A stretch of 64,000 nt of DNA from Sideroxydans sp. (GTDB lineage: Bacteria; Pseudomonadota; Gammaproteobacteria; Burkholderiales; Gallionellaceae): the NCBI GenBank assembly GCA_028710605.1, contig JAQTTU010000008.1, positions 92,409 to 156,408 on the forward strand, read 5' to 3'. Shown piece after piece: positions 528 to 23,493 of the stretch; the first letter of the stretch is position 1, and each line of letters begins with the position of its first letter. The position numbers and the translations under genes are program-made. Below the pieces are notes generated by a model. That model worked only from the letters and a program-made list of their open reading frames with translations, searched no databases and was not told where the DNA came from.

Positions 528-986
528 TCAATGCGAAACGCGGGTTACTCCGGCGCTTTCGATCACGCGCACTTTATCGCCGACGGCGAAGGTTTCTCCG
601 CTGATGGATTTGGCCTGAACCACCGAGATGTGGCTGCCGTCTTCAAGTTTGATGGCGATCTCCAGCGCATCTTCTCGGGTGTAAGCCTCTTCCGTGGCTG
701 CCCCCAGCATACCGCCGACTACGCTGCCGAGAACAGAGGCGATCTCGCCGGTTTTTCCCTGCGATGCACCGCTACCGGCGATACCGCCGACCACCGCACC
801 GGCGGTTGTGCCGATCTGGCTTTGCGTGCCTTCGATGCGCACCGCCCGCACGCTCTCGATCACGCCGACCTTGAAGGTTTGCACCTGGCGCACTTGGTCG
901 CGGGTATAGACATCGGCGGATTTTCCGCTGGCGCAGGCACCCAGCAATACGGCGGCGGACAGAGCAAGAATCAGTTTTGTGTTCAT
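528..986 (-). CDS. Glycine-zipper outer-membrane lipoprotein (SlyB/Pcp-like)
   Basis: Signal peptide with lipobox LLGAC. Gly-zipper stretch GTTAGAVVGGIAGSGASQG..SVVGGMLGAA. Confidence 0.7.
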   Translation of the reverse strand: MNTKLILALSAAVLLGACASGKSADVYTRDQVRQVQTFKVGVIESVRAVRIEGTQSQIGTTAGAVVGGIAGSGASQGKTGEIASVLGSVVGGMLGAATEEAYTREDALEIAIKLEDGSHISVVQAKSISGETFAVGDKVRVIESAGVTRVSH

Positions 987-8631: not shown

Positions 8632-10107
8632 ATGAGTCGTGAAGTTCTGTTGTTGGTAGATGCCTTGGCGCGTGAGAAGAACGTGGATAAGGAGATCGTG
8701 TTCGGTGCGCTGGAATCGGCTTTGGCCTCGGCTACCAAGAAACGTTTCCCGGACGAAGAGGCGGATGTGCGCGTGAGCATCGACCGCCAGACCGGCGAGT
8801 ACGAATCGTTCCGCCGCTGGCAGGTGATGGACGATGAAACATTTGAAACGCCCGAATTGCATATCAAGCAAAGCGAAGCGGAAAAGCAGCATCCCGGCAT
8901 TCAACTGGAAGAGTTTATCGAAGAGCAGCTGGAGAACATCGACTTCGGTCGTATCGGCGCGCAAGCGGCGAAGCAAGTCATCTTCCAGAAGATTCGCGAC
9001 GCGGAGCGCGAGCAGATTCTGGCCGACTTCATGGAGCGCAACGAACATCTGGTGTCCGGCACGATCAAGCGTATCGAGCGCGGCAACGCCATCGTCGAGT
9101 TCGGCAAGATTGAAGCACTGCTGCCGCGCGACCAGATGATCCCGAAAGAAAATCTGCGCGTCGGCGACCGCGTGCGTTCTTATCTGTTGCGTGTTGATCG
9201 CACCGTGCGCGGCCCGCAGATCATTCTGTCGCGCATCACTTCGCAATTCCTGGTCAAGCTGTTTGAACTGGAAGTGCCGGAAATCGAAGAAGGTCTGCTG
9301 GAGATCGTCAGCGCGGCGCGCGATCCCGGTTCGCGCGCCAAGATCGCGGTGCGCAGCCACGACCAGCGCCTCGATCCCATCGGCACTTGCGTCGGTATGC
9401 GCGGTTCGCGCGTGCAGGCCGTGACCAACGAATTGGCGGGCGAACGTGTTGACATCATCCTGTGGTCGGAAGATGCCGCCACTTTTGTCATCAACGCTTT
9501 GGCTCCTGCGGAAGTCAGCAGCATCATGGTGGATGAAGACAAGCACAGCATGGATGTGGTGATTGAGGAAGAGAATCTGGCGCAAGCCATCGGGCGCGGC
9601 GGTCAGAACGTGCGTCTGGCGACCGAGTTGACCAACTGGGAAATCAATCTGATGACGGTTGAGCAAGCTGCCGAGAAGAACGAGCAGGAGTTCTCCAAGA
9701 TTCGCGACCTGTTTGTGAGCAAGCTGGATGTGGACGAGGAAGTCGCCGACATTCTGGTGCAGGAAGGTTTCAACACGCTGGAAGAAGTGGCCTACGTGCC
9801 GCTGGAAGAAATGCAGGCCATCGAATCTTTCGATGAAGCGACGGTGGAAGAGCTGCGCAGCCGCGCACGCAATGCGCTGCTGACCGCAGCCATCGCCAAT
9901 GAAGAACAGGTCGAGCACAACATCGAAGACCTGTTGAAGATCGACGGCATGGACGAGGAAACGGCGCGCACGCTGGCGGGCAAAGGTGTCGGCACGCAAG
10001 AGCAGCTGGCCGACCTGGATGGCGATGAGTTGATGGAAATGACCGGAATGGATGCCGAGCGCGCCAACCAGTTGATTATGACGGCGCGTGCGCCTTGGTT
10101 CGTTTGA
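8632..10107 (+). CDS. nusA: Transcription termination/antitermination factor NusA
   Basis: 491 aa with S1 and KH regions and C-terminal acidic repeats. Conserved position between rimP and infB. Confidence 0.95.
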
Positions 10108-10164
10108 ACCTGAAGCGCAGGCAGTAAGGGTTATCCGTAGTCTGGTATTGGTTAAGGGGTTGCA

Positions 10165-12804
10165 ATGGGAAAAATGAATGTCGCGCAATTTGCGAGTGAG
10201 CTGGGGCTTCAGGTCGAGCTGCTGTTGGAGCAGTTGAAATCGGCTGGCGTTGCCAAGCAGAAAGATACCGACTCCATCTCCGAACAGGACAAGTCGCAAC
10301 TGCTGGAACATCTGCGCAGCGCGCACGGTGGCGGCAAGAACAAGATCACGCTGGTGCGCCGCGAGACGACCGCGATCAAGAAAGCCGATAGTTCCGGCAA
10401 GTCGCGCACCATTCAAGTCGAAGTGCGCAAGAAACGCACGGTTGCCCCCGCCGCAGCGGCACAGCCTGCCGAAGTGGCGGCAGCGCCCGCTCCGGTAGCC
10501 GCGCCTGCACCTGTTGCGGAAGTTGTCGCGCCAGCCAAGCCCGCCAAGAAGGGCTTGAACGAGCAGGAGCAAAAAGCGCGCGAAGAAGAAGCGCGCCAAC
10601 AAGCCGAACTGGCGGCACGCCAGGCGGCGGATGCGCTGGCCAAACAAGAGCGCAACAAACGCAAAGCTGCGGCTGCCGAACCTGCCCCAGCGCCTGCCCC
10701 GGCAGCCGCGCCAATCGCTGCGCCAACTCCAGAACCTGTGGCAGAGGCCAAGTCCGCCGTTGCTGCGCCTGCCGCTGCGGCCGCACCGGAAGGCACATTG
10801 CACAAGCCGACGCTCAAGCCCGGCGACAAGGTCGCGCGTCCCGCCAAGAAGGTCGAGAAGCCCGCCGCCGCTGTCAAGGAAAGTCCGTGGGATGAGAAAG
10901 GACACAAAAAGCGTCCGCCTTCGCGCAGCACCGATACCCGTGCCGGGTTGGGCAGTCGCACCGGCGGCAGCGCGGTGCGCGCGCCGCGTCACGACAAGCA
11001 CAGCAAGCCGGAAGCGGCGCATGCGTTCTCGTTGCCGACCGAACCTATCGTGCAAGAGGTGATGGTTCCTGAAACCATCTCGGTTGCCGAGTTGGCGCAG
11101 AAGATGTCGATCAAGGCGGTGGAGATCATCAAGACCCTGATGAAGATGGGTTCCATGGTCACCATCAATCAGGTGCTGGATCAGGAAACCGCGATGATTC
11201 TGGTGGAAGAGTTGGGACACAAAGCCGTTCCGGCCAAGCCGGACGATCCCGATGCGTTCCTGATGGAAGCGGTCGATCATTCCGATGTGGTGATGGAATC
11301 GCGCGCGCCGGTGGTGACCGTGATGGGTCACGTTGACCACGGTAAGACATCCTTACTGGACTACATCCGCCGTACTCGTGTGGCGAGCGGCGAAGCAGGC
11401 GGAATCACGCAGCACATCGGTGCATATCACGTCGATACCCCGCGCGGCATGATTACTTTCCTCGACACGCCCGGCCACGAAGCGTTCACCGCGATGCGTG
11501 CTCGCGGCGCAAAAGCCACCGACATCGTGATTCTGGTGGTGGCGGCGGACGACGGTGTGATGCCGCAAACCAAAGAAGCGATTCACCATGCCAAAGCGGC
11601 GGGCGTGCCCATCGTGGTGGCGGTGACCAAGATCGATAAACCGGATGCCAATTCCGAGCGCGTGCGCCAGGAACTGGTGGCGGAAGGTGTGGTGCCTGAA
11701 GATTGGGGCGGCGACGCGATGTTTGTGGAAGTGTCCGCCAAGACCGGACAAGGCATAGACACTTTGCTGGAAGGCATTCTGTTGCAAGCCGAAGTGCTGG
11801 AATTGAAAGCACCGAAGAACACCAGCGCCAAAGGCGTGGTGGTCGAAGCGCGTCTGGACAAGGGTAAGGGCGCGGTAGCCACGCTGCTGGTGCAATCCGG
11901 TACGCTGAAACGCGGCGACGCGATTCTGGTCGGCTCCGTGTCTGGCCGTGTGCGCGCCATGCTGGATGAAAACGGCAAAGCCATCCACGAAGCCGGTCCT
12001 TCCATTCCGGTGGAGATTCAAGGTTTGTCCGAAGTGCCGGTGGCCGGTGCCGATTTCCTGGTGCTGGCCGACGAGAAGAAGGCGCGCGAAATCGCGCTGT
12101 TCCGCCAAGGCAAGTTCCGCGACGTGAAACTGGCCAAGCAGCAAGCCGCCAAGCTGGAGAATATGTTCGAGCAGATGGGCGAGGGCGAAGTGCGCACCTT
12201 GTCGCTGATCGTCAAAGCCGACGTGCAGGGCTCGCTCGAAGCTATCGCCAGTTCGTTGCAGAAGCTTTCCACGTCCGAGGTCAAGGTCAACCTCATCCAC
12301 AGCGCGGTGGGCGCGATCACCGAGTCGGATGTCAATCTGGCGCTGGCTTCCAAGGCGATCATCATCGGCTTCAACTCGCGTGCCGATGCCACGGCGCGCC
12401 GTCTGGCGGAATCGTCCGGCGTGGATATTCGCTACTACAACATCATCTACGCGATGGTCGATGAGATCAAAGCGGCGCTGTCCGGCATGCTGGCTCCCGA
12501 GAAGAAGGAAAGCATCATCGGCATGGTCGAGATTCGCCAGGTGTTCCACATTTCCAAGGTGGGCACGATTGCCGGATGTTATGTCACCGAGGGCTTGATC
12601 AAGCGCAGCTCCAGCGTGCGCGTGTTGCGCAACAACGTGGTGATCCATAGCGGCGAACTGGATTCGTTGAAGCGCTTCAAGGATGATGCGAAGGAAGTTA
12701 AATCCAACTTCGAGTGCGGCTTGTCTCTGAAGGGTTACAACGATCTGCAAGTCGGCGACTTCCTCGAAGTGTTCGAGATCGTCGAAGTGGCACGGGCGCT
12801 GTAA
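10165..12804 (+). CDS. infB: Translation initiation factor IF-2
   Basis: [20 protein letters not shown] and TKIDK GTPase motifs. Ala/Pro-rich N-terminal linker. Confidence 0.95.
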
Positions 12805-14554: not shown

Positions 14555-15424
14555 ATGGCGCGACCACTCCGAATCGAACTATCCGGCGGCATCTACCACG
14601 TGACCTCGCGCGGCGACGGGCGCGAGGATATTTTTCTGGATGACCGAGATCGGGTGCAATGGCTGGAAGTGCTCGGACAAGTCTGCGAGAGGTTTAACTG
14701 GGTATGCCACGCCTGGTGCCAGATGACCAACCATTACCACCTGCTGATCGAAACCCCGGAAGCCAATCTCGCCCAAGGCATGCGCCAACTCAACGGCGTT
14801 TACACCCAACGCTTCAACCGCGACCACCAGCGCGTAGGCCACGTATTTCAAGGCCGCTACAAAGCCATCATCGTCGAACGCGACACCTACCTGATGGAAC
14901 TGGCACGCTATATCGTCCTGAACCCGCTACGCGCAAAAATGGTTAAGCGCCTCGAAGATTGGCGATGGAGCAGCTACCTCGCCACCTGCGCACAAGAACC
15001 GCAACCCAACTGGTTGCAGACCGACTGGATACTGGCGCAATTCGGAATTCGGCGTAGCAGCGCCATTGCCAAATACATCCAGTTCATCCACCAAGGCGCG
15101 CGCCTGCCCAGCGTGTGGGCGCAATTGCAAGGGCAGATATACCTCGGCTCGGAAACCTTCGTCAAAAACATGCAAGCGCAGATCGAAAAGAAAACCTCGC
15201 TGGACGAAATCCCGCGCGCGCAAAGACGCGCCATCACCCAACCGCTGGAAGAATTTGAAAAGCAATACGAACGCAACGAAGCCATGGCACAAGCCTACCT
15301 GAGCGGGCGACACACCATGGCTGCCATAGCCCAACATTTCGGCGTACATTACGCCACCGTGAGCAGAGCGGTTAACGCCAGCAAGTCAACGGAAAAACAA
15401 GGTGCGGACGATGCTAATACTTGA
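14555..15424 (+). CDS. REP-associated tyrosine transposase (RAYT; IS200/IS605-like Y1 HUH enzyme) with C-terminal DnaA-C-like HTH
   Basis: YHVTSRG, HUH motif NHYHLLIETP, catalytic-Tyr block RYIVLNPLRAKMV, WRWSSY, and C-terminal MAAIAQHFGVHYATVSRAV. Confidence 0.85.
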   Translation: MARPLRIELSGGIYHVTSRGDGREDIFLDDRDRVQWLEVLGQVCERFNWVCHAWCQMTNHYHLLIETPEANLAQGMRQLNGVYTQRFNRDHQRVGHVFQGRYKAIIVERDTYLMELARYIVLNPLRAKMVKRLEDWRWSSYLATCAQEPQPNWLQTDWILAQFGIRRSSAIAKYIQFIHQGARLPSVWAQLQGQIYLGSETFVKNMQAQIEKKTSLDEIPRAQRRAITQPLEEFEKQYERNEAMAQAYLSGRHTMAAIAQHFGVHYATVSRAVNASKSTEKQGADDANT

Positions 15425-15514
15425 TGCGCCACCAGAACCGCCAAGAAATGCACCAGTGATGATGGCGCAAGCGAAAGAATGCGCCGGATGGAAATGTCGT
15501 AATGCAAGACCTGA

Positions 15515-17611
15515 CCCCGTTGTTCCTACTCTCGTCTATATGAGCATCAAAAAATTGATGGATCCGCCACGGTTACGGTATTGCAGAACCCCAAGCACGG
15601 GGTAATACGTTTAGTAACAGAGGCCGACAGAGGCACTTTCTTTAGCAGTAAATCTGGCCCCATTAATCCAGCTTACGAGCCTTACGCTTACCTTCCGGAG
15701 CAAGGTTATCTGGGCAACGACAGCGCCACCTTCCTGGTAGATTTTGGCGGCAAGATAGTCAAAGTAGTTTATTACTTCAAGGTGGTCGATCACCCCGTTG
15801 GGAATGATGGTGACATGGAGATATGTAAGTCCGGTCCTTACTGGAAAATCTCCTCCACCCTAGCCCCCAACGGCACCAGCACCCTCACCTCCGTCGAATA
15901 CCAGCAGCTCACCCTTGACGCTGGCAACACCACGACAGATATTTCCACGTTGGCTTCAACACTCGACTCCAGCATCCTGAGCAGCCTCTCCGTTGACCCA
16001 ACCGCTGTCACTCTGAACATCGCCGACCTCCCCAACGCCGCAGTCGGCCAAACCACCGGCTCCACCATCACCCTCGACACCACCGCCTCCGGTTACGGCT
16101 GGTTCATCGACCCCACCCCCGCCGACAACAGCGAATACCTCCCCACCTCCAACCCCTTTGAGTGGGTAGCCAAAGCGGGCAGTGAGGCTGCGGGCAAAAT
16201 GGACATGCTCACCGTCCTCCTGCACGAATACGGCCATGCCCTAGGCATCAACCACAGCGCCGACCCGAACGACTACATGGGCGCAACGTTGACGGCGGGG
16301 GTGCGCAGGTTGCCGAGTGCGGAAGAGATGGTCTTGATGCAGGGGTTGGTGGCGCAGGCTAAAGACGGTTTGGTAGGGCGGGTTACACCCGCCGATGCCG
16401 CACAACAAACGGCGGGTGTGACCCGCCCTACGACCCCCGCCCCATTCCCCACCCTCCCGCTAGGCGGCATGAGCCTGGCTTTCGTCGGCCTGCTGCGCAG
16501 CAGCCGTTATGGCGGACTGAGCATCGCGCCGGATGGCAGCACGTTGGTTACACAATACGACTGGGCGGCTAATCCCGCCTTTGCCAGCCTCGACAATGTG
16601 GGTGGTTGGTCAACGGAAGATGGCGTGGACTTTGCGCCCGCAGACCCTTCGACAAGCTCAGTGCGAACGGCCTCTGCCACCCTGAACGAAATCTCCACCA
16701 GCCAAACCCGCTTGAGCCAAGTGTTCATGCTCAACACTAGCGACCGCTACCTGAGCTTCACTCTGAGCGGCACAGCGCTGGATAACCTCACTGGCGCACC
16801 GGACGATGCCTTTGAAGTCGCTTTGCTCGATGCCAACACCGGCCTCTCGTTGCTCGGCAGCAACGGCCTAACCCGCAGCGATGCCTTCCTCAACCTGCAA
16901 GCCGACGGCACGCAGAACGCCGCTGACTGCGTGACCTGCACCAACAATGCCGATGGCAGCCGCACCTACCGCGTTGACCTCACCGGCATTTCCGCAGGAA
17001 CCGTAGCCAACCTCAGCTTCGACCTCATCGGCTTCGGGCAAAACGGTAGCCACATCACCGTGCAGGATGTGCGCGTCAGCGGCCTGCCGCAATTGCACGA
17101 CGACAGCGCCACCCTCGCCGAAGATAACCAGCTGACCTTCGACCCCTTCGCCCAAGCCGACACCCAGCTCAAACCGCTGCTTGTTTCCCACATCGTTGAT
17201 GCTCCGACGCATGGTGCTGTTACGGTGAACGCGGACGGCAGTGTCAACTCCGCATCCGCTTAAGCGGATAGCGGATTGCCTACCTTTGGTACATTCGCTT
17301 ACACCCCAGACCTCAATTACTTCGGCAGCGACAGCTTCAGCTACCGCCTCTCCGACGGCCCGCTCGATTCCAACCTCGCCACCGTCAGCCTCACCGTCAC
17401 CCCGGTGAACGACGCGCCTGTAGTCGCCGACGTTGCTGCGATTACGGCAGAAGACACGCCGCTGGTGATTGCGCTGGGAGCGTATGCAAGCGATGTGGAC
17501 TCCACCGCGCTTGTTGTAACCATCGTCAACGCACCCATCCACGGCACGCTGCAAGCCAATGCACTGAGGATGAACTTGCTGGCAGTAGTGAATGCGAATT
17601 CATCGCACTAA
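15515..17611 (+). pseudogene. Remnant of a large secreted metzincin / cadherin-like repeat protein: 5'-truncated, one in-frame TAA, 3'-truncated
   Basis: Zinc motif HEYGHALGINH. Cadherin-like repeats (DSFSYRLSDGPLDSNLATVSLTVTPVNDAPV). No signal peptide or credible start. ORFs 15581-17263 and 17276-17611 share one frame separated by a TAA at 17261-17263. The reading frame ends inside a REP. Confidence 0.65.
17584..17608 (+). repeat. REP, GTAG-hairpin family (variant)
   Basis: GTAGTGAATGCGAATTCATCGCACT has the same hairpin core as 14282-14305. Confidence 0.55.
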
Positions 17612-17615
17612 TTCG

Positions 17616-17645
17616 TTGGCATCCGCCAAATTGTTCGGTTACAAT
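17616..17645 (+). promoter_or_regulatory. Candidate promoter for tRNA-Val
   Basis: TTGGCA, 18 nt, TACAAT, ending 15 nt before the tRNA 5' end. Confidence 0.55.
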
Positions 17646-17659
17646 GCGCGTCCTTTTAC

Positions 17660-17736
17660 AGGCGCGTAGCTCAGCTGGTTAGAGCACCACCTTGACATGG
17701 TGGGGGTCGTTGGTTCGAGTCCAATCGCGCCTACCA
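17660..17736 (+). tRNA. tRNA-Val (anticodon GAC)
   Basis: Acceptor AGGCGCG/CGCGCCT, U8, D-arm AGCTCAGCTGGTTAGAGC, anticodon arm CCACC-TTGACAT-GGTGG, T-arm GTTGGTTCGAGTCCAAT, encoded CCA. Confidence 0.93.
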
Positions 17737-17775
17737 ATTTCCCGGTAGCATCCCGAAGTTCTTCTGAAAAATGCC

Positions 17776-18330
17776 ATGTTCACATTGAGCCTGCATGGAG
17801 AAGAAAGCACCCAGGCTCAGCTCAAGCCTGGCTATTCCTACTGTTTGATCGTGCGTTCCGATGCTCAGCGCAAAGCGGTGTTGGATACGCTTGCCGCACT
17901 GCCGAACGTGGCGGTTGTCGCCAACAACGGCGGGCTCATCAGCAATCTGCGCGTGTGGGAAAACCTGGCCTTGCCGGTGCAATATCGCAATATTCAACTC
18001 GGCGGCAAATTCGAAGAGAACGTGGTAAATTTGCTGGAGAAGTGCGGAGTGCGCGACGAGCAGTCTTTTACCGCGCTGATGTTCAAGCTGCCCGATCAAT
18101 TGTCGTTGTATGAAAAGCGTTTGGTCGGTTTTGTGCGTGCGATGCTGATGATGCCGGAGGTGATGGTCTATGACTCTTTGCATGAAGGACTTTCGCCCAG
18201 GGAGATGGAAAAGACCGCCAGATTCGATCGCATTTTCCGTTTGTATTTTCCGTTCCGCACTTCGGTATTGTTGAGTTTCGACGAATATCGGGATCCGACC
18301 GAACCCCGACAAGTGGTTATCCAATTGTGA
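17776..18330 (+). CDS. Degenerate ABC nucleotide-binding-domain-like protein (MlaF-like fold, all catalytic motifs lost)
   Basis: 184 aa, collinear with MlaF as I recall it. Walker A GPSGIGKT is replaced by VRSDAQRKA, the Q-loop Q by N, signature LSGGM by LSLYE, Walker B-Glu FDEP by YDSL, and H-loop SHD by SFD. Confidence 0.6.
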   Translation: MFTLSLHGEESTQAQLKPGYSYCLIVRSDAQRKAVLDTLAALPNVAVVANNGGLISNLRVWENLALPVQYRNIQLGGKFEENVVNLLEKCGVRDEQSFTALMFKLPDQLSLYEKRLVGFVRAMLMMPEVMVYDSLHEGLSPREMEKTARFDRIFRLYFPFRTSVLLSFDEYRDPTEPRQVVIQL

Positions 18331-18331
18331 G

Positions 18332-19285
18332 ATGAAACTACCTAACTTCAATCTGACCATACTGAATACCGAACGCAAAACCACGCGCTTTATGTGGGTC
18401 GCGCTTCTGGTGCTGGTTGCGGTGTCGAGCATGATCGCGTTCAAGCAGGATTATTTTGTGCGCAATACCGCGATCTATTTCTTTGCGCCCAACGCGCAGG
18501 GAATCAGCAAGGGCATGGCTGTAAAATTCATCGGCTTCAAGGTGGGCAGCGTGCAGGAAATCAGCATGCAGTCCAACGCTTCGGTCAAGGTCAAGCTGTC
18601 GCTGGATAACGAGTACGTCCGCCTTATCGGGCAGGATGCCAAAGCGCGTTTGACCAAAGAGGCGCTGGTGGGCGAGGGCGTGGTCGAGATCATTCCCGGC
18701 GAGCAGCAGGTGCGGCAGGTGGTGGAGAACAGCGTGCTGGTGTTCGAGCGCGGCATAGATGCCGGAGCATTGGTGGAGCGGCTTACCGGGCAATTGCAAC
18801 CGATTCTGACCGATGTGAAACAAATCACTTCTTCGATCAATAATCCGCGCGGCGACGTGCAGCAGATTCTGAAAAATCTTACTCAAGTGACCGGCGGCTT
18901 GCGCGAGACGGTGGTGCAATTCAACGCGCTGGCGCAAAGCGGCAACCAGAAGCTGGATGGCGCATATGTGAAAGTGGATCGCGCGCTGGATCGCGTCAAT
19001 TCAAGTCTGGAAGCGGTGGACAAGGCGATTCCGAAATTGGTGGGCAAAGCGGATGCGACGATGGACAACGTGCAGTCGGTGGCTGTCGATATCAAACGCA
19101 TCACCAGCGAATCTTCCGAACAAATTCCTTCTCTGGTTCGCAATACCAACGCCCTTGTGCAGGATAGCCAGGAGACGCTGAAAGGCGTGCAGAAATCCTG
19201 GTTGCTGAACGATCTTTTCCCCAGGCCGGAAGAGACGGCGCTGCCGGTGGACGGCTATGTGACACCGCCGGTGGTCAAGCCGTGA
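18332..19285 (+). CDS. MCE-domain (MlaD-like) membrane protein with long helical C-terminal region
   Basis: N-terminal TM (FMWVALLVLVAVSSMIAF). MCE core ..GISKGMAVKFIGFKVGSVQEISM..VKVKLSLDNEY.. Confidence 0.8.
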   Translation: MKLPNFNLTILNTERKTTRFMWVALLVLVAVSSMIAFKQDYFVRNTAIYFFAPNAQGISKGMAVKFIGFKVGSVQEISMQSNASVKVKLSLDNEYVRLIGQDAKARLTKEALVGEGVVEIIPGEQQVRQVVENSVLVFERGIDAGALVERLTGQLQPILTDVKQITSSINNPRGDVQQILKNLTQVTGGLRETVVQFNALAQSGNQKLDGAYVKVDRALDRVNSSLEAVDKAIPKLVGKADATMDNVQSVAVDIKRITSESSEQIPSLVRNTNALVQDSQETLKGVQKSWLLNDLFPRPEETALPVDGYVTPPVVKP

Positions 19286-20091
19286 TGAAGGCATTTTTCC
19301 TGAGGAGCGGGCTCTTGCTGCTGGCGTTATCGCTGCTGTCCGCCTGCGGCAGCAAAGCGCCGGTCGCGCGCAGCGCGCGGCAGGAGCAGGCCATCGAATT
19401 CAACCAGCGCGCCCAGCGCGCATTTTTGCGCGGCGAATATCAGACTGCCGCCGGTTTGTACGAAAACGCGCTGCTATTGGATGCCGCCATCGAGAATGAG
19501 GAAGGCATCGCGATCAATCTGCTGAATCTGGCCAGAGTAAATCAAACGCTGGGCAAGCCTGCGCTGGCGCAACAGTATCTGGATAGGCTGCTGGGCGAAA
19601 AGGCGCTGAAATTTCCGTCAGCGCAACTGGCGGCTGCGGCCACGCAATACGGCCTGATCCGCTTGCAGGCAGGCGATGTTGTCACAGCGAAAATATGGGC
19701 GGACAAGGCGGCGGAATATTGTGCGTCAGACTGCAAATCGTCCGGGGTGATCGCCAATCTGCGCGCGAACATCGCCATCCAGTCCAACGATAAAGAGCAG
19801 GCGCTGTCGTGGAGCGAGCGTGCGGTTTCCGCCAACAAGGGCGAGTCGCAAGTGGAATATGCCAATGCCTTGCGTTTGTTGGCGCAGTCCAGATTGTTGC
19901 GGCAGGAATTTGCGTTGGCGCTGCCCTTGCTGGAAGAGGCGCTTGCAATCGACAAGACGCTGGGGCTGCCGGAAAAAATTCGCCAGGATTTGTTGTTGTC
20001 GGCGCAAGCGCAGGGCAAATTGGGGCGCGCGGAAATGGCGGTGCAATATCGCGAACGGGCGGCGCGCATCGCCGCCACTGCGGTGAAGTGA
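19285..20091 (+). CDS. TPR-repeat lipoprotein
   Basis: Lipobox LLSAC. Repeated A-x-x-Y/L-x-x-A-L TPR-like helices. The start overlaps the MCE gene stop. Confidence 0.7.
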   Translation: MKAFFLRSGLLLLALSLLSACGSKAPVARSARQEQAIEFNQRAQRAFLRGEYQTAAGLYENALLLDAAIENEEGIAINLLNLARVNQTLGKPALAQQYLDRLLGEKALKFPSAQLAAAATQYGLIRLQAGDVVTAKIWADKAAEYCASDCKSSGVIANLRANIAIQSNDKEQALSWSERAVSANKGESQVEYANALRLLAQSRLLRQEFALALPLLEEALAIDKTLGLPEKIRQDLLLSAQAQGKLGRAEMAVQYRERAARIAATAVK

Positions 20092-20092
20092 G

Positions 20093-21892
20093 ATGGAGCT
20101 GAAACTGGGCGCGCTGAAGTTGGCAAACGAAAAGGCCAGAATCGGTCTGGGTTTTGTCGTGTGTCTGCTGGTGACTGCGGGGCTGACTTTCTCCCACTTG
20201 AGCGAGAATCTGAACCGGAAAATACTGGACCGGCAATTTGTTTTTTTGCGCGATCACTACCCGCATCCGGTTGCCAACGATGTGGTGATTGTCGGTATCG
20301 ACGAAGCGACCTTCAAGACCTTCAAAGAACCCTACGAATTATGGCATCCCCACTTCGCCAAATTCTTGCAGGCCATGAGCCGTGCCAAGCCTTCTGTGGT
20401 CGGGATAGATGTGGCGTTGCCGGAACATTCCTACGATTTTTTGATACCGAAGTATGACCAGAATCTCACTCAGGGATTGCTCGCGCTGAAAGCGCAAAGC
20501 CCCATCGTGCTGGGGCAATTGCTGGACGAAAACGGCAACTTCCGTTCGGTGTATGCACCATTTATCGAGGCATCCGGCACGAATGCGCTGGCCACAGTCG
20601 TGGTTTGCTCGGAAGCGGACAAGGTGGCGCGTTTCGCCGATCCGAACCAGTGTACGGTCAATGCGCAAGGCGCGACCTTGACCGAAGCGATGGCGGTGCA
20701 ATTGGGCAGGAAGCAACCATCGCGCGGCCTGGTCGATTTCAGGGTGGGCGATGAGCTGACTTACATCCCGTTTCAAAAAGTGCTGGATTGGGCGGAAAAT
20801 GGAGATGACGAGCAAATGCGCAATGCGTTTGCAGGCAAGCCAGTGTTGCTCGGCATGATTTTGCCGTTTGAAGATCGCGTGAATTTGCCCGTGGTGCTGG
20901 CGGCGTGGGAGCCGGAAAACCGTCATGTATCCACTGTGGTGTGGCATGCACAGGCGCTACGTTCGATGCTGGAGCGCGGTTTGATTCAGGAATCCCATCA
21001 CGATCTGGTGCTGGCGTTGAGCCTGCTCGCGGCTTTGCTTTGGTTTGCCCGTTTGCACTGGTTCAAGTTTGTGTCGCTGGTGATTTTTCCGATTGTGTTG
21101 CTGGCTTATTCGACCTGGCATCTGAGTCAGGCGGCTTATTTACCGGTGGGCGGAATATTGCTCTCGGGCTTTGCTGCATTCGGTTTGCGTTCCATTTATG
21201 AATTGATATTGAAAGCGCGCGAGAACAAGGAACTGCGCGGCATCTTCGGCAGTTACGTGAGCGCCGAGACCTTGCGCGAACTGATCGCGGGCGGCGTGAA
21301 ATCGCGTCTTGAGGGCGAGCGTAAACGGGTGTGCATCCTGTTTGCCGACATCCACAATTTCGGCGCGCGCAGCGAAAGCAGTTCGCCCAAAGAAGTGGTC
21401 GCATTGCTCAACGAATACTTCACCGAAATGACGGTCGCCATCCACCAGCACAACGGCACGGCCAGCAAGTTTATCGGCGATGCCATCATGGCCTGCTTCG
21501 GCGCGCCGCAAGCATTGGAATGCCCGGAGAAAAACGCATTGGAAGCCGCACAGGCAATGCTGTTGCGCGTGCGCCAGGTCAATGCGCGTTTGAAGGAGCA
21601 GGGCATCGCTCCGATTGAGATCGGTATCGGACTGCACGTGGGCGACGTGGTGATCGGACATATTGGCTCGGAAGCGCGCCACGAATACACCGCCATTGGC
21701 GAAGTGGTGAGCATGGCGGCCAAGCTGGAAGAGCTGACCAAGACTTTGGGCTACCCGGTAGTGTGCTCCAGGGCGGTGGCGGAAAGAGTTGAACTGTCCG
21801 GCGGGTTGACCGAGCTGGGCGAGCAAACAATGAAAGGTAATGCCGTATTGTCGGTGTGTGGCTGGTATCCACCTTTGCTTGCGGCGAACTGA
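20093..21892 (+). CDS. CHASE2 sensor / class III nucleotidyl cyclase with non-canonical transition-state residues
   Basis: N-terminal TM, about 270-aa periplasmic CHASE2-like region, three TM helices, then a cyclase domain: ILFADIHNFG and KFIGDAIMACFGAP are present, but the GDxVNxAxR block reads GEVVSMAAK. Confidence 0.8.
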   Translation: MELKLGALKLANEKARIGLGFVVCLLVTAGLTFSHLSENLNRKILDRQFVFLRDHYPHPVANDVVIVGIDEATFKTFKEPYELWHPHFAKFLQAMSRAKPSVVGIDVALPEHSYDFLIPKYDQNLTQGLLALKAQSPIVLGQLLDENGNFRSVYAPFIEASGTNALATVVVCSEADKVARFADPNQCTVNAQGATLTEAMAVQLGRKQPSRGLVDFRVGDELTYIPFQKVLDWAENGDDEQMRNAFAGKPVLLGMILPFEDRVNLPVVLAAWEPENRHVSTVVWHAQALRSMLERGLIQESHHDLVLALSLLAALLWFARLHWFKFVSLVIFPIVLLAYSTWHLSQAAYLPVGGILLSGFAAFGLRSIYELILKARENKELRGIFGSYVSAETLRELIAGGVKSRLEGERKRVCILFADIHNFGARSESSSPKEVVALLNEYFTEMTVAIHQHNGTASKFIGDAIMACFGAPQALECPEKNALEAAQAMLLRVRQVNARLKEQGIAPIEIGIGLHVGDVVIGHIGSEARHEYTAIGEVVSMAAKLEELTKTLGYPVVCSRAVAERVELSGGLTELGEQTMKGNAVLSVCGWYPPLLAAN

Positions 21893-22674
21893 TGTCTGAC
21901 CTTTGGAGCAAAATCAGTCTGTGGTTGAAGCTGGGGCAGATAGTCCAGACGGCGCGCGGTTGTTTTGATTTGTGGTGGTATGCAACCAGCCATTACCGCG
22001 TATTAAAAATCGTCCCGGTCAACACCGTATTCCATCGCCAGATATTTTTCACCGGGGTCGAGGCGTGGGGCATTGTCGCGGTGTTCGGCTTTCTGTGCGG
22101 CACGCTGGTTATCACCCAGACCACCTCGCTGGTCGGCGGCGACAGCGAGCTTACCGTGAAAATTTTGATCTGGACCGTGGTGCGCGAAGTCGGCCCCTTG
22201 TTCGCCGCCATCATCATCATCGCGCGCAGCAGCGCAGCCATCGCCTCCGAGTTGGCGCTGATGAAAACGCGCAACGAAATGACCCACCTCTCGCGCATGG
22301 GCATCTCGCCGCAAGACTATCTGATCGTGCCGCGCATCTTCGGCGTAACGCTGGCGGTAATGGCGCTGACCATTTACTTCCAGGTTGTCGCCATCGGCGG
22401 CGGTCTGGCCGTGAGCGCACTGTTTCAAAACGTTTCCTATCTCGATCAAATCGGGCGCTTCCTGAGCACCGTCAAACTCAGCGAATTCGTGCTGGTCGCG
22501 TTCAAAGGCTGCCTGTTCGGCATCGCCATTTCCACCATCTCCTGCTACAACGGCATGCAAGCCAAACCCTCGGTGACCGAAGTCCCCAAAGTCGCCATCC
22601 GCGCCGTGCTGCAAAGCCTGCTGTTCGTGTTCACGCTGGATGCGTTGATCGCCTATGTCACTATGGCGGGGTGA
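21892..22674 (+). CDS. MlaE-like ABC transporter permease
   Basis: VREVGPLFAAIIIIARSSAAIASELALMKTRNEM..LSRMGISPQDYLIVPRIFG is the MlaE/YrbE signature. The start overlaps the cyclase stop (TGATG). Confidence 0.85.
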   Translation: MSDLWSKISLWLKLGQIVQTARGCFDLWWYATSHYRVLKIVPVNTVFHRQIFFTGVEAWGIVAVFGFLCGTLVITQTTSLVGGDSELTVKILIWTVVREVGPLFAAIIIIARSSAAIASELALMKTRNEMTHLSRMGISPQDYLIVPRIFGVTLAVMALTIYFQVVAIGGGLAVSALFQNVSYLDQIGRFLSTVKLSEFVLVAFKGCLFGIAISTISCYNGMQAKPSVTEVPKVAIRAVLQSLLFVFTLDALIAYVTMAG

Positions 22675-22684
22675 CTTGCTTTGC

Positions 22685-22709
22685 TTTCCGGCTTGTGCCG
22701 AAATGACGG
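22685..22709 (+). repeat. Degenerate CGTCATTCCGGC-type hairpin
   Basis: TTTCCGGCTTGTGCCGAAATGACGG; compare ATTCCGGCCTGCGCCGGAATGACGG at 7895-7919. Confidence 0.55.
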
Positions 22710-22795
22710 ACTTAAGAGAATCGCAGCAGGCATAGCCAATCCGCAAGCGTTGTGTTAGATTCTGTCCAGTCTGGCCAGAATTAATGGAGAACATC

Positions 22796-23074
22796 ATGCG
22801 CAGCGAACGACAGTTTCAGGAAGCAACGGGTCATTGGCAATTACAGGAAGCAAAGGGCAACTTCAGCCAACTCATCAAGCGGGCGGCGGGCGGCGATGCG
22901 CAAATGGTCACTGTACACGGCAAGCCTACGGCGGTAGTTGTTTCGGCGGAAGAGTACGCCCGGCTCACCCGCCACCGCACCAAGCTCTCCAGCGCGCTGC
23001 TGCGTCCCGACCTCGCAGCCGAAGACCTGGACATTACCCGCAGCCGCGACGCTGGGCGCGACATCGAGCTATGA
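22796..23074 (+). CDS. Type II antitoxin, Phd/YefM family
   Basis: WQLQEAKGNFSQLIKRA..VTVHGKPTAVVVSAEEYARL. It overlaps the toxin start (ATGA). Confidence 0.8.
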   Translation: MRSERQFQEATGHWQLQEAKGNFSQLIKRAAGGDAQMVTVHGKPTAVVVSAEEYARLTRHRTKLSSALLRPDLAAEDLDITRSRDAGRDIEL

Positions 23075-23493
23075 GCTGGCTGCTGGACACCTGTGCGCTT
23101 TCCGAATACGCCAAGAAAGCTCCAGCGACTAAAGTGATAGCTTGGCTGGACGAACAGGACGAGGCCAGCCTTTTTATCAGCGTCATCACGCTGGGCGAAA
23201 TCGAAAAAGGCATCCTCAAATTGCGCTCCCGCGACACGCGCCGCAGCCAGAAGCTCACCGCTTGGTTGGGCAAGGTGGAACAACGTTTCGCCGGACGCAT
23301 CCTGCCGCTCGATGCCGCCACTCTCCACGTCTGGGCGCAAATCGCCGCGCATTGCGAGCTGGCCGGGCAACCCATGCCAGTGATGGACGGCCTGCTCATG
23401 GCCACCGCCCAATGCCACGGACTCACCGTGGTCACCCGCAACGTGCAGGATTTTGCGCCGTATCCACAAATCTTTAATCCTTGGGAGCTGTGA
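23071..23493 (+). CDS. vapC: Type II toxin VapC (PIN-domain ribonuclease)
   Basis: MSWLLDTCALSE (first PIN Asp), ..ITLGEIEKG.., C-terminal VVTRNVQDF. Confidence 0.85.
   Translation: MSWLLDTCALSEYAKKAPATKVIAWLDEQDEASLFISVITLGEIEKGILKLRSRDTRRSQKLTAWLGKVEQRFAGRILPLDAATLHVWAQIAAHCELAGQPMPVMDGLLMATAQCHGLTVVTRNVQDFAPYPQIFNPWEL

Follow-up and report, generated by a model that had tools for sequence, protein, structure and literature searches.

A widespread MlaF-like nucleotide-binding domain that has lost its catalytic motifs, encoded with MlaE and MCE proteins, as a likely scaffold subunit

Introduction

ABC transporters are defined by the ATP-driven dimerization of their nucleotide-binding domains (NBDs). 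How MCE systems are powered and the direction in which they move lipids are debated for Mla and, to our knowledge, are not known for Pqi and Let. PqiABC and LetAB, which are also MCE envelope systems, function with no ABC ATPase, and in Pqi the outer-membrane lipoprotein PqiC partners a needle-forming MCE protein.

The MlaFEDB complexes of E. coli, P. aeruginosa and A. baumannii (6xbd, 7ch8 and 7d06) combine an MlaE permease with an MCE protein, MlaD, that has an N-terminal TM helix. Without nucleotide, MlaFEDB is outward-open and a hydrophobic path runs unbroken through MlaE and MlaD, the cytoplasmic segment between TM2 and TM3 of MlaE is the coupling helix that contacts MlaF, and MlaF carries a C-terminal 'handshake' extension (Coudray et al., PMC7790496). 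The mycobacterial Mce1-Mce4 systems share an orphan ATPase, MceG, and MceG Walker B mutants support neither transport nor stabilization of the complex (PMC9947336). Degenerate nucleotide-binding sites occur in heterodimeric ABC proteins such as CFTR (site 1), PatAB and TM287/288 (PMC5626490 and PMC9541285).

An earlier note on a 64-kb stretch of Sideroxydans DNA (hereafter the window) claimed that the only ABC-type gene of an operon with an MCE gene encodes a pseudo-enzyme. Computational analysis of this gene bears out that description, as the product keeps the NBD fold while all of its catalytic motifs are replaced. The protein, referred to here as the pseudo-NBD, is most likely a non-catalytic scaffold on MlaE, and it belongs to a large family that extends far beyond one operon.

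Organization of the operon and comparison with described systems

The pseudo-NBD ORF runs from ATG to TGA and is the first of five genes that overlap or lie 1 nt apart (Table 1). It is coupled to the MCE gene through a TGA-g-ATG junction with a gap of 1 nt, the start codon of the TPR lipoprotein gene overlaps the MCE stop codon, and the ATG of mlaE overlaps the cyclase stop codon by 1 nt. A GTG at position 21856 proposed by the ORF finder is probably not the mlaE start; the start adopted here follows the gene called at a related locus (L001) and the junction itself. Judged by its pattern, the sigma-70-like match upstream of the tRNA-Val gene may be a common promoter for the tRNA and the operon, in a region where promoter-like matches are not more numerous than in shuffled sequence. 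A regex search of all six frames of the 64-kb window found no ORF combining a Walker A motif with LSGG, so the pseudo-NBD is the only ABC-like gene in the window, as the earlier note had stated for the operon.

Table 1. Features of the pseudo-NBD locus (positions in the window)
Feature	Coordinates	Strand	Evidence
Sigma-70-like promoter match, TTGGCA-18-TACAAT, upstream of tRNA-Val	17616..17645	+	consensus scan, 10/12 matches, pattern only
tRNA-Val (GAC), 39 nt 5' of the pseudo-NBD start codon	17660..17736	+	ARAGORN
Pseudo-NBD, MlaF/MceG-like ABC nucleotide-binding-domain homologue without catalytic motifs, 184 aa	17776..18330	+	profile searches, alignments, AF2, Foldseek, dN/dS
Former Walker A, V26-R-S-D-A-Q-R-K33, no glycine-rich loop, no GK[ST]	17851..17874	+	hhalign, MAFFT
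Former Q-loop and hallmark block (G52-G-L-I-S-N-L-R-V-W-E-N-L-A-L-P-V-Q-Y-R71)	17923..17988	+	conservation, alignments
Former ABC signature, LSLYE (L109-E113) for LSGG[QM]	18100..18114	+	profile, MAFFT, hhalign
Walker B remnant VMVYDS; D133 kept, catalytic Glu replaced by Ser134	18160..18177	+	profile, MAFFT, hhalign
Former H-loop, SFD (S167-F-D169) for (S/T)HD, His replaced by F168	18274..18282	+	profile, MAFFT, hhalign
MCE (MlaD-family) protein, 317 aa, N-terminal TM helix, one MCE domain, ~145-aa C-terminal helical region	18332..19285	+	Pfam MlaD E 5e-15
TPR lipoprotein, 269 aa, predicted lipobox LSAC, Cys22, Gly at +2	19282..20091	+	Pfam TPR_12, lipobox
CHASE2 sensor fused to class III nucleotide cyclase, 599 aa	20093..21892	+	Pfam CHASE2 and Guanylate_cyc
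MlaE-family permease, 260 aa	21892..22674	+	Pfam MlaE E 3e-48; P. aeruginosa MlaE 7ch8_G E 8.5e-18
Terminator-like hairpin and T-rich tail at operon end	22657..22685	+	pattern scan only

The MCE protein has a single hydrophobic segment at residues 17-39 and a beta-barrel at residues 45-139 in its AF2 model, and its orthologues have a precomputed match to PF28544 (Helical_needle). Only secondary structure was taken from the model of the MCE monomer, which has a pLDDT of 54 with the helical tail below 50. PADLOC returned no defense-system match for the pseudo-NBD, the TPR lipoprotein or MlaE, and matched the cyclase only as a generic class III cyclase (PycC).

Among described systems, MlaFEDB is similar in its MlaE permease, in its MCE protein with an N-terminal TM helix and in the tight coupling of its genes in one operon, and MlaF is, by small margins, the best match of the pseudo-NBD in both sequence and structure. 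The differences lie in the missing catalytic motifs of the pseudo-NBD, in its lack of the 'handshake' extension and of ~27 residues of the beta-subdomain, and in the gene content of the operon, where Pfam detected no STAS domain and no mlaB or mlaC gene is present, but a TPR lipoprotein and a CHASE2 cyclase are encoded. E. coli MlaD is also shorter, at 183 aa, than the window's MCE protein with its long helical tail. The Mce1-Mce4 operons likewise encode no catalytic ATPase in cis, the C-terminal parts of their MCE proteins are long and helical (and form a needle in Mce), and MceG (8fed) is among the best structural matches of the pseudo-NBD; those operons, however, contain no NBD gene at all and need active MceG, whereas the window operon encodes a dedicated dead NBD. 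PqiABC and LetAB share with the window operon the MCE basis, the absence of a working ABC ATPase (for the window operon, in cis) and, in Pqi, a lipoprotein partner, but PqiA and LetA are unrelated to MlaE, there is no NBD-fold subunit, and each MCE protein carries several MCE domains. In heterodimeric ABC proteins with degenerate sites the catalytic Glu, the His or the signature is lost while the NBD is kept for structure or regulation, as could be the case here. In those proteins, though, degeneracy affects only one of the two composite sites, ATP still binds at the P-loop and hydrolysis goes on at the other site, whereas an NBD that is encoded by a single gene, and is thus presumably a homodimer, and that has lost its P-loop would have both sites dead.

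The closest catalytic relative is probably a group of canonical systems of Betaproteobacteria that encode a STAS-MlaE permease, an MlaF-type NBD, an MCE protein of ~316 aa and a PF03886 lipoprotein in that order, as at locus L041 in Sideroxydans sp. LH_M3 (L041:651-4250). The four-gene order at L041 matches that of the pseudo-NBD modules of Nitrospirae, Geobacter and Chitinibacteraceae, and the Q-loop region of these systems, QHGGLFGSLTVxENIGLPL, resembles the hallmark of the pseudo-NBD family, GGLISNLRVWENLxLP. Their NBD is canonical (GGSGSGKS, LSGGM, LDEP and THD; Pfam E 5e-29), however, their permease has a STAS domain, and their lipoprotein is PqiC/DUF330-like instead of TPR. Close homologues of the L041 NBD that carry an organism name come mostly from Rhodocyclales (Azoarcus, Aromatoleum and Accumulibacter), with only one from Gallionella.

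Homology, fold and size of the pseudo-NBD

The pseudo-NBD scores below the gathering threshold of Pfam ABC_tran (PF00005; 16.4 bits, E 0.014, cut-off 25), and its best NCBIfam match reaches 27 bits against cut-offs above 200. Despite the sub-threshold Pfam score, homology to ABC NBDs is significant by profile methods. A 19-sequence profile searched against the PDB gave P. aeruginosa MlaF (7ch8) as the best match at E 3e-12, and a comparison by hhalign with 14 canonical MlaF-type paralogues gave a probability of 97.9% and E 5.7e-13, with the alignment running from the strand of Walker A as far as the H-loop. The predicted structure agrees: the AF2 model (pLDDT 92, pTM 0.89) contains the RecA-like core and the helical subdomain of an NBD, minus ~27 beta-subdomain residues, and its best Foldseek matches are MlaF (7d06_B and 6xbd_I) and MceG (8fed_H) with TMq values of 0.72-0.73. 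Foldseek against the PDB returned 1057 matches at E<=0.001, and among the matches listed all 50 of 50 were ABC NBDs. The pseudo-NBD is thus a true ABC NBD homologue, and the fold prediction called for by the earlier note found the NBD fold kept. MlaF appears to be the closest of the NBD families, an affinity that rests on gene context and on small score margins both in the profile search (49.5 bits for MlaF and 46.1 bits for a sugar-transporter NBD) and in Foldseek (E 7e-11 for MlaF and 4e-10 for FtsE).

The protein is indeed shorter than ordinary NBDs, although the account first given of the missing parts needs correction. The shortfall relative to E. coli MlaF is 85 aa, and most of it is accounted for by an absent C-terminal extension of about 55 aa, with the pseudo-NBD ending about 15 residues past the H-loop position. 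An internal deletion after Walker A, put at roughly 25 aa in the earlier note, corresponds to the beta-subdomain hairpin after helix 1 and amounts to about 27-29 residues. The N-terminal strand, on the other hand, is not missing; the N-terminal region is only shortened, and the AF2 model places strands at residues 2-6, 12-16 and 21-25.

Loss of the catalytic motifs

The earlier claim that every catalytic position differs is confirmed by three independent alignments, namely the profile search against the PDB, a MAFFT alignment with verified E. coli MlaF, and hhalign against the 14 paralogues. The three agree on the substitutions, which rules out misalignment of the motifs by eye. VRSDAQRK pairs with GGSGSGKS in the hhalign alignment and with E. 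coli GPSGIGKT in the MAFFT alignment. The Q-loop (FQSGALF or FQHGGLF) aligns with A49-N-N-G-G-L-I55, in which N50 takes the place of the Gln, and the Walker B and catalytic Glu motif (F/L)DEP aligns with Y132-D-S-L135. The same losses are found across the family. The Walker A regex G.{4}GK[ST] matched none of the 82 module-linked ORFs from 80+ genomes and none of the best 148 of 581 cluster representatives, and LS[GA]G occurs in only 2 of those 148. At the Walker B position, 19 of 27 family representatives keep the Asp and one has the catalytic Glu. Since the P-loop, the Q-loop Gln, the signature, the catalytic Glu and the switch His have all been lost, the pseudo-NBD is predicted from its sequence neither to bind ATP in the canonical manner nor to hydrolyze it.

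Selection, conserved surface and family breadth

All 45 Gallionellaceae orthologues of the pseudo-NBD have 184 codons with no indel and no stop, and the 112 homologues found are nearly all exactly 184 aa in length. The median NG86 dN/dS of the pseudo-NBD is 0.119, compared with 0.120 for MlaE, 0.143 for the MCE protein, 0.205 for the TPR lipoprotein and 0.204 for the cyclase. The gene is therefore under strong purifying selection at a level equal to that of the MlaE permease, and the proposal of the earlier note that an intact ORF is being retained and is not decaying has stood up.

Across 27 divergent representatives (under 60% identity), conservation is highest in residues 52-70, the block that follows the Q-loop, and in the helix behind the former signature. 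The family consensus of this block is GGLISNLRVWENLxLPxxYH, a motif that 113 of the best 148 cluster representatives share, and G53, L54, N57, L58, N63, L66, P67 and Y70 are invariant columns in an alignment dominated by Gallionellaceae. The corresponding stretch of ordinary ABC transporters lines the coupling-helix groove and docks the permease. The block in the pseudo-NBD is presumed, by analogy, to be its permease-docking surface. Alignment with P. aeruginosa MlaE (7ch8_G) indicates that the operon's MlaE keeps the cytoplasmic TM2-TM3 segment. The earlier note had asked whether the groove for the coupling helix was kept, and as far as can be read from the sequences this appears to be so, the block predicted to line it being the most conserved part of the family.

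The family is large and unannotated, with 581 clusters (at 50% identity) at E<=1e-10, of which 67 reach E<=1e-30; canonical paralogues score no better than 46.9 bits (E 1.9e-7) on the same scale. Its hosts belong to several phyla and include Betaproteobacteria, Nitrospirae, Geobacter and Verrucomicrobia, and the module is present in the complete genomes of Sideroxyarcus emersonii (AP023423.1), Ca. Ferrigenium straubiae (NZ_CP194331.1), Chitinibacteraceae HSL-7 (CP197642.1) and Jeongeupia wiesaeckerbachi (NZ_CP136946.1), among others. The genes beside that of the pseudo-NBD nearly always encode MlaE, a TPR lipoprotein and an MCE protein whose helical tail is long. An MCE gene is present in all 82 loci, MlaE in 71, and the TPR gene in most. 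Eight of the 11 loci that lack MlaE are cut by contig ends. The loci L052, L053 and L057 have the pseudo-NBD, MCE, TPR and cyclase genes with no MlaE within the flanks examined, so MlaE may not be the sole partner of the pseudo-NBD or may be encoded elsewhere in these genomes. Neither a Walker-A-less MlaF-like family nor MlaE/MCE/TPR modules were described in the literature searched, and the supplement of a Sideroxydans ES-1 transcriptome and the text of a Ferrigenium straubiae preprint contained nothing on expression of these genes. Family members are at present labeled 'hypothetical' or, wrongly, 'MlaF ATPase subunit', and GGLISNLKVWEN in the absence of a P-loop is offered as a signature for their annotation.

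Proposed role and alternative explanations

The explanation that we favor, and consider likely to be correct, is that the pseudo-NBD is a non-catalytic descendant of an MlaF-type NBD which serves as an obligate scaffold subunit of a distinct and widespread envelope module, whose other members are MlaE, a single-domain MCE protein with a long helical C-terminal region and a TPR lipoprotein. The pseudo-NBD keeps the NBD fold and would also retain a surface for docking on the MlaE coupling helix. By analogy with MlaFEDB, the complex might contain two pseudo-NBDs, two MlaE subunits and six MCE subunits, with both composite nucleotide sites dead. The pseudo-NBDs would cap and stabilize the MlaE dimer on its cytoplasmic side and keep it in the conformation of the nucleotide-free state. 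The complex would then be no pump but a conduit, tether or sensor that handles hydrophobic molecules without ATP. In the Gallionellaceae, the operon has acquired an inserted CHASE2-cyclase gene, a hint of a signaling link.

Whether a motor is supplied from another gene bears directly on this proposal. No canonical NBD was detected by regex inside any module among the 82 loci. A canonical ABC ORF lies within 7 kb in only seven of them, at a distance of at least 4 kb from the module. Six of these ORFs carry GASGSGKS and LSGGE, and the one inspected (at L001) is an ABC_tran domain followed by a MacB_PCD/FtsX permease; the seventh is the NBD of the separate canonical MCE system of Sideroxydans sp. 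LH_M3, whose complete gene set (STAS-MlaE, ABC_tran with GGSGSGKS and LSGGM, MlaD and the PF03886 lipoprotein) lies 4.3 kb upstream of the pseudo-NBD operon. The earlier statement that the system has no ATP-hydrolyzing subunit therefore stands for genes in cis, while an ATPase acting in trans, like MceG, could still serve it. The accompanying remark that such a system would be unusual is not apt for MCE systems as such, given PqiAB and LetAB, but it is for an MlaE permease paired with a dead NBD.

It is possible, though unlikely, that a canonical MlaF- or MceG-type ATPase encoded elsewhere powers MlaE and that the pseudo-NBD, as its competitor or as its partner in mixed dimers, serves as a brake, a stabilizer or a chaperone of assembly. 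Sharing of orphan ATPases is established for Mce systems (PMC9947336), and the likeness of the GGL motif to the QHGGLF Q-loop of the L041-type paralogues means that the two kinds of protein could recognize similar coupling helices. The canonical system in LH_M3, close as it is to the pseudo-NBD operon, has its own MlaE, however, and ATPases of its type are not evidently universal in genomes that encode the pseudo-NBD. A mixed dimer, moreover, would have no complete ATP site because the pseudo-NBD lacks both Walker A and the signature, leaving one site without a P-loop and the other facing LSLYE. The 1:1 linkage with MlaE and the equal constraint on the two proteins also point to a stoichiometric subunit more than to a regulator that acts only occasionally. 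That the ORF is a decaying mlaF remnant, arose by chance or encodes an NBD with intact but misaligned motifs is scarcely credible, and these readings have already been refuted. The sub-threshold Pfam score, the label 'hypothetical protein' that NCBI gives to the orthologues, and a longer antisense ORF (17731-18444; 237 aa) that overlaps the pseudo-NBD ORF would be in keeping with them, but they are outweighed by the uniform length of the homologues, the occurrence of the family in several phyla, the confident AF2 model, and the concordance of hhalign with the other two alignment methods; decay in particular is ruled out by the dN/dS of 0.12 and by the intact orthologues.

Alternatively, the pseudo-NBD could have been repurposed as a cytoplasmic sensor or adaptor that binds another ligand at the remodeled P-loop or binds the cytoplasmic domain of the CHASE2 cyclase, in which case the MlaE-MCE complex would be a signaling device and not a conduit; we regard this as quite improbable. 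At the former P-loop, R27, S28, Q31 and R32 reach at least 90% conservation in the Gallionellaceae-dominated alignment, and non-canonical binding of a nucleotide or another ligand may occur, but these residues are not conserved in the wider family. A CHASE2 cyclase occurs in or beside the module in at least three gene orders (the main clade, L048 and L049, and L064), it accompanies the pseudo-NBD in L052 and L057 with no MlaE nearby, and in L049 and L052 the module lies amid CHAT, caspase, DUF4384 and DUF928-like genes, a setting on which a search of the literature for the CHASE2/DUF928/CHAT combination gave nothing useful. About 31 of the 82 loci, however, have no cyclase match (mostly those of Nitrospirae, Geobacter, Chitinibacteraceae, Verrucomicrobia and Burkholderiales), and the cyclase is gone from L042, L045 and L046 and eroded in many other loci while the pseudo-NBD is unchanged there.

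With the scaffold as the preferred explanation, an NBD fold that lacks the ATP motifs and yet is conserved in several phyla suggests that these complexes have swapped the motor for an inert look-alike. The broader proposition, that a wide class of MlaE-MCE machines has permanently replaced the ABC motor with a dedicated pseudo-NBD, is tentative, and we lean slightly to the doubtful side of it. If it is true, an ABC-transporter architecture has become a device that runs without ATP, either a passive conduit or tether for lipids across the envelope or a sensor of envelope lipids. No earlier ABC-type system would then have an NBD, here apparently a homodimer, that is P-loop-less on both sides and serves only as a scaffold. 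Because MlaE and an NBD-shaped subunit have been kept under strong purifying selection in several phyla while the ATP residues have gone, the family is a natural experiment on what a non-catalytic NBD contributes to assembly, stabilization and conformational locking, and it could show whether an MlaE-MCE conduit works without energy input.

The CHASE2 cyclase

If the broader proposition holds, the device is wired in the Gallionellaceae to a CHASE2 cyclase that is itself now becoming a pseudo-enzyme. Parallel erosion of this kind suggests that entire complexes can gradually exchange an enzymatic role for a structural one. By its sequence the operon's cyclase is catalytically eroded, and catalytic residues are being lost in the window's clade; none of 35 orthologues has the full catalytic set. 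Read from alignment with CyaC (1wc0) and Cya2 (2w01), the window protein keeps D419, K459 and D463, the two metal-binding Asp residues and the substrate Lys of the catalytic set, and it has S540 and K544 at the positions of the transition-state Asn and Arg, respectively.

Homology and retention of the pseudo-NBD

The pseudo-NBD is encoded by the first gene of a five-gene operon in which every junction is a 1-nt spacing or an overlap (TGA-g-ATG, GTGATGA, TGA-g-ATG and TGATG, in order). Single-sequence searches barely detect it as an NBD, as it scores 16.4 bits against Pfam ABC_tran (cut-off 25) and 27 bits against the best NCBIfam ABC ATPase model. The top match of a 19-sequence profile was Pseudomonas aeruginosa MlaF (7ch8; E 3e-12; alignment spanning Q-loop through H-loop), and hhalign matched a 69-sequence alignment to 14 canonical MlaF-type paralogues with 97.9% probability (E 5.7e-13) over 150 columns beginning at the strand that precedes Walker A. 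In this alignment, Walker A (canonical GGSGSGKS) reads VRSDAQRK (26-33), the Q-loop (FQHGGLF) ANNGGLI (49-55), the signature (LSGGM) LSLYE (109-113), Walker B with the catalytic Glu (LDEP) YDSL (132-135), and the H-loop (THD) SFD (167-169). MAFFT alignment with E. coli MlaF (a reference identical to PDB 6xbd_I) gave the same pairings, and the loss of catalytic motifs proposed in the earlier note is upheld by all three alignments. That note also held that the N-terminal strand was missing, which is incorrect, as the strands are present in shortened form (model residues 2-6, 12-16 and 21-25). The internal loss, put at about 25 aa, covers some 27-29 residues following helix 1 and corresponds to the beta-subdomain hairpin; the protein is indeed short, by 85 aa relative to E. 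coli MlaF, and the other main part of this deficit is a missing C-terminal extension of about 55 aa.

The NBD fold is kept. AlphaFold2, run with the 69-sequence alignment, gave a confident model (pLDDT 92.0, pTM 0.89), and Foldseek against the PDB returned only ABC NBDs among the 50 matches listed, led by Acinetobacter baumannii MlaF 7d06_B (E 7e-11, TMq 0.73), E. coli MlaF 6xbd_I and mycobacterial MceG 8fed_H. FtsE, YbbA and others score within a factor of ten of these, so a specific affinity with MlaF rests mainly on gene context.

A protein search recovered 112 homologues, almost all of them of exactly this length (184 aa), in Gallionella, Sideroxydans, Sideroxyarcus and Ferrigenium, and the codon alignment of 45 genomic orthologues has 184 columns with no indel and no stop codon. 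Median pairwise dN/dS (Nei-Gojobori, pairs with dS between 0.05 and 1.5) is 0.119 for the pseudo-NBD, 0.120 for MlaE, 0.143 for the MCE protein, 0.205 for the TPR lipoprotein and 0.204 for the cyclase. Constraint on the dead ATPase equals that on the permease, and the earlier view that the gene is retained rather than decaying is borne out. An antisense ORF of 237 aa spans the whole gene; judged by how the plus-strand frame is conserved and by its dN/dS, this is almost certainly a shadow ORF that does not code for protein.

Features noted in the window
Feature	Position	Strand	Basis or remark
P-loop motif GACASGKS	918-941	-	in 193-codon stop-to-stop open frame
IS200-like Y1 transposase-family ORF	14555-15424		HTH domain; upstream of tRNA-Val
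560-aa ORF	15581-17263		matrixin (M10) motif, cadherin-like domain
111-aa ORF	17276-17611		cadherin-like
Promoter-like match	17616-17645		pattern match only; 5' of tRNA-Val
tRNA-Val (GAC)	17660-17736		ends 39 nt 5' of pseudo-NBD start codon
Antisense ORF, 237 aa	17731-18444	-
Pseudo-NBD, 184 aa	17776-18330	+	ORF call
Former P-loop	17854-17871	+	residues R27 to R32
MCE/MlaD protein, 317 aa	18332-19285	+	Pfam
TPR lipoprotein, 269 aa	19282-20091	+	Pfam; lipobox LSAC, Cys22
CHASE2 sensor-class III cyclase fusion, 599 aa	20093-21892	+	Pfam
Cyclase catalytic sites	near 21347, 21467, 21479, 21710, 21722	+
MlaE permease, 260 aa	21892-22674	+	Pfam
Terminator-like hairpin			pattern match only; 3' of MlaE
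Phd/YefM antitoxin	22784-23074		between MlaE and thrS
PIN-domain toxin	23071-23493		between MlaE and thrS

A family of NBD-like proteins without a P-loop

Scanning a single genome for each GTDB species gave 80 loci, and the five window proteins were used as tblastn queries against all fetched loci. The module (MlaE, an NBD-like protein, an MCE protein and usually a TPR lipoprotein) was found in Gallionellaceae and other Burkholderiales, in Chitinibacteraceae (Chitiniphilus, Jeongeupia, Silvimonas and others), and in Nitrospirae, Thermodesulfovibrio, Geobacter and Verrucomicrobia. Gene order is NBD-MCE-TPR-cyclase-MlaE at 38 loci, MlaE-NBD-MCE-TPR at 14, MlaE-NBD-MCE at nine and NBD-MCE-TPR-MlaE at eight. 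The Walker A pattern G.{4}GK[ST] occurs in none of the 82 module-linked ORFs. The sole locus with a Walker A (L082) carries an unrelated canonical ABC protein and has no MCE or MlaE gene.

When 1.84 billion cluster representatives were searched exhaustively with an HMM, the number of clusters retrieved was 67 with a threshold of E<=1e-30, 581 with E<=1e-10 and 12,056 with E<=1e-3. Among the best 148 representatives (E<=1.5e-21), Walker A is found in none and LS[GA]G in two, while a GGLISNLKVWEN-type block is found in 113. Scored on the same scale, the nearest canonical paralogues do not exceed 46.9 bits (E 1.9e-7) and E. coli MlaF gets 32.4 bits, so some 580 clusters (E<=1e-10) outscore every catalytic NBD tested. 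The pseudo-NBD belongs to a large family and is no lone oddity. The predominant forms are about 215-225 aa long and keep the beta-subdomain segment with the P-loop already gone; the 184-aa Gallionellaceae form derives from these by a later deletion. Almost no family protein has a precomputed Pfam hit, source records name these proteins 'hypothetical' or, automatically, 'MlaF ATPase subunit', and full-text literature searches found no description of the family. The operon encodes an MlaE/MCE system whose NBD is a pseudo-enzyme.

Conserved surface, possible source of ATPase activity and proposed function

Among 27 representatives sharing less than 60% identity, the strongly conserved positions are the block G52-G-L-I-S-N-L-x-V-W-E-N-L-x-L-P-x-x-Y70, P106/L109, and the helix E113-K-R-L-V-G-F-V-R-A-M-L124...P127; the Walker A, Q-loop Gln, catalytic Glu and H-loop positions vary. 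In ABC transporters generally, the coupling helix of the permease fits into a groove lined by the segment following the Q-loop. The alignment of the operon MlaE with P. aeruginosa MlaE includes the cytoplasmic stretch between TM2 and TM3, identified by Coudray et al. (PMC7790496) as the coupling helix that contacts MlaF. This pattern is what would be expected of a subunit kept for docking and not for catalysis.

At the former P-loop, S28, Q31 and R32 are kept at >=90% and R27 is basic in most sequences of an alignment made up mostly of Gallionellaceae. These four residues lie at the N-terminus of helix 1, where phosphates would bind, and are not conserved in the wider family; together they could make up a remodelled site for an anion or ligand.

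Less probably, a catalytic ATPase is supplied in trans to the MlaE of the module. The window has no ORF with both a Walker A and an LSGG signature (the frame with GACASGKS near the start of the window lacks an ABC signature), and a canonical ABC ORF lies within the fetched flanks of only 7 of 82 loci, each time at least 4 kb from the module. Six of the seven have a GASGSGKS/LSGGE ORF, and at the one of these inspected, Sideroxyarcus emersonii (L001), an ABC_tran gene is followed by a MacB_PCD/FtsX permease gene. The seventh is Sideroxydans sp. LH_M3 (L041, 651-4250), where a complete canonical MCE system lies 4.3 kb upstream of the pseudo-NBD operon; a pseudo system and a catalytic paralogue can thus be present in one genome. 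The canonical system comprises a STAS-MlaE fusion, an ABC_tran protein with GGSGSGKS and LSGGM, a 316-aa MlaD and a PF03886 (PqiC-like) lipoprotein. It resembles the pseudo family in gene order (E-F-D-lipoprotein) and Q-loop (QHGGLF), and is probably its nearest catalytic relative. A mixed dimer would still have no complete ATP site, since the pseudo-NBD has neither P-loop nor signature.

The pseudo-NBD is very likely a non-catalytic NBD homologue that is under selection and integral to the module. By analogy with MlaFEDB, two copies would sit on an MlaE dimer beneath a hexameric MCE ring. Without bound nucleotide, MlaFEDB is outward-open and the pocket of MlaE runs on into the pore of MlaD (PMC7790496); a pseudo-NBD that never binds ATP would leave MlaE outward-open, giving a static hydrophobic route to the MCE channel. 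Past its MCE domain, the MCE protein has some 145 helical residues (in a low-confidence model; Pfam Helical_needle is matched in orthologues), and the TPR lipoprotein has Gly at +2 and would be destined for the outer membrane under the E. coli rule; together these suggest a trans-envelope arrangement like that of Pqi or Mce1. A non-catalytic NBD descendant serving as a subunit of an MlaE/MCE module, with this mechanism, is overall a probable explanation of the data; the locked outward-open passive conduit taken by itself is only plausible, and somewhat doubtful.

Chain I of the recent PDB entry 13hr (312 aa, named 'Mce/MlaD domain-containing protein'; eight chains) gives a weak alignment (E 0.003) to the MCE protein of the window across the MCE domain and helical tail; among solved single-domain MCE proteins with a long tail, it may be the nearest.

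Erosion of the operon cyclase

The window cyclase retains the metal-binding Asp residues (D419, D463) and Lys (K459), with the transition-state Asn replaced by S540 and the Arg by K544. The full D-K-D-N-R set occurs in none of 35 orthologues in its clade, and 16 of the 35 have lost one or both metal-binding Asp. Three loci (L042, L045, L046) lack the gene and a fourth (L036, 9317-9511) retains a remnant of about 65 aa, with the other four module genes intact in all; the cyclase has thus been lost repeatedly within the main clade. The canonical set is kept in a distant clade (L048, L049, L052, L053, L057, L064), where CHAT, caspase, DUF4384 and DUF928-like genes surround the module. Together, these patterns indicate that the cyclase was still active when recruited and is now eroding in the window's lineage, while the pseudo-NBD has stayed constant. 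In L049, a Gallionella MAG (8876-12775), a DUF4384 protein lies between the TPR lipoprotein and the CHASE2 cyclase and a DUF928-like protein between the cyclase and MlaE, so CHASE2-associated genes are interleaved with the module.

MlaE was not found within 7 kb upstream or 3.4 kb downstream of the module in L052 (the complete genome of Ca. Ferrigenium straubiae KS) and L057, both of which have the pseudo-NBD, MCE, TPR and cyclase genes. L053 has the same four genes and likewise no MlaE, but its downstream flank covers only about 0.7 kb; L053 and L057 are Gallionella MAGs. In L052 (348-11034) the module is preceded by genes for a CHAT-TPR protein and for two caspases, one carrying DUF4384 and the other PDZ and S41 peptidase domains.

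Operon boundaries and neighboring genes

The tRNA-Val gene and the operon may be co-transcribed, as the sole promoter-like match sits 5' of the tRNA; no obvious Shine-Dalgarno sequence lies between the tRNA and the pseudo-NBD start. The GTG at 21856, called by the ORF finder as the MlaE start, is probably not the true start, because the called MlaE of S. emersonii starts at the cyclase stop. Upstream, the 560-aa and 111-aa ORFs look like fragments of a single large adhesin or protease gene that has been disrupted; dnaB occupies the position in S. emersonii that matches window 14555-17611. Downstream, MlaE directly adjoins thrS in S. emersonii, and the Phd/YefM and PIN pair is inserted between these two genes in the window.
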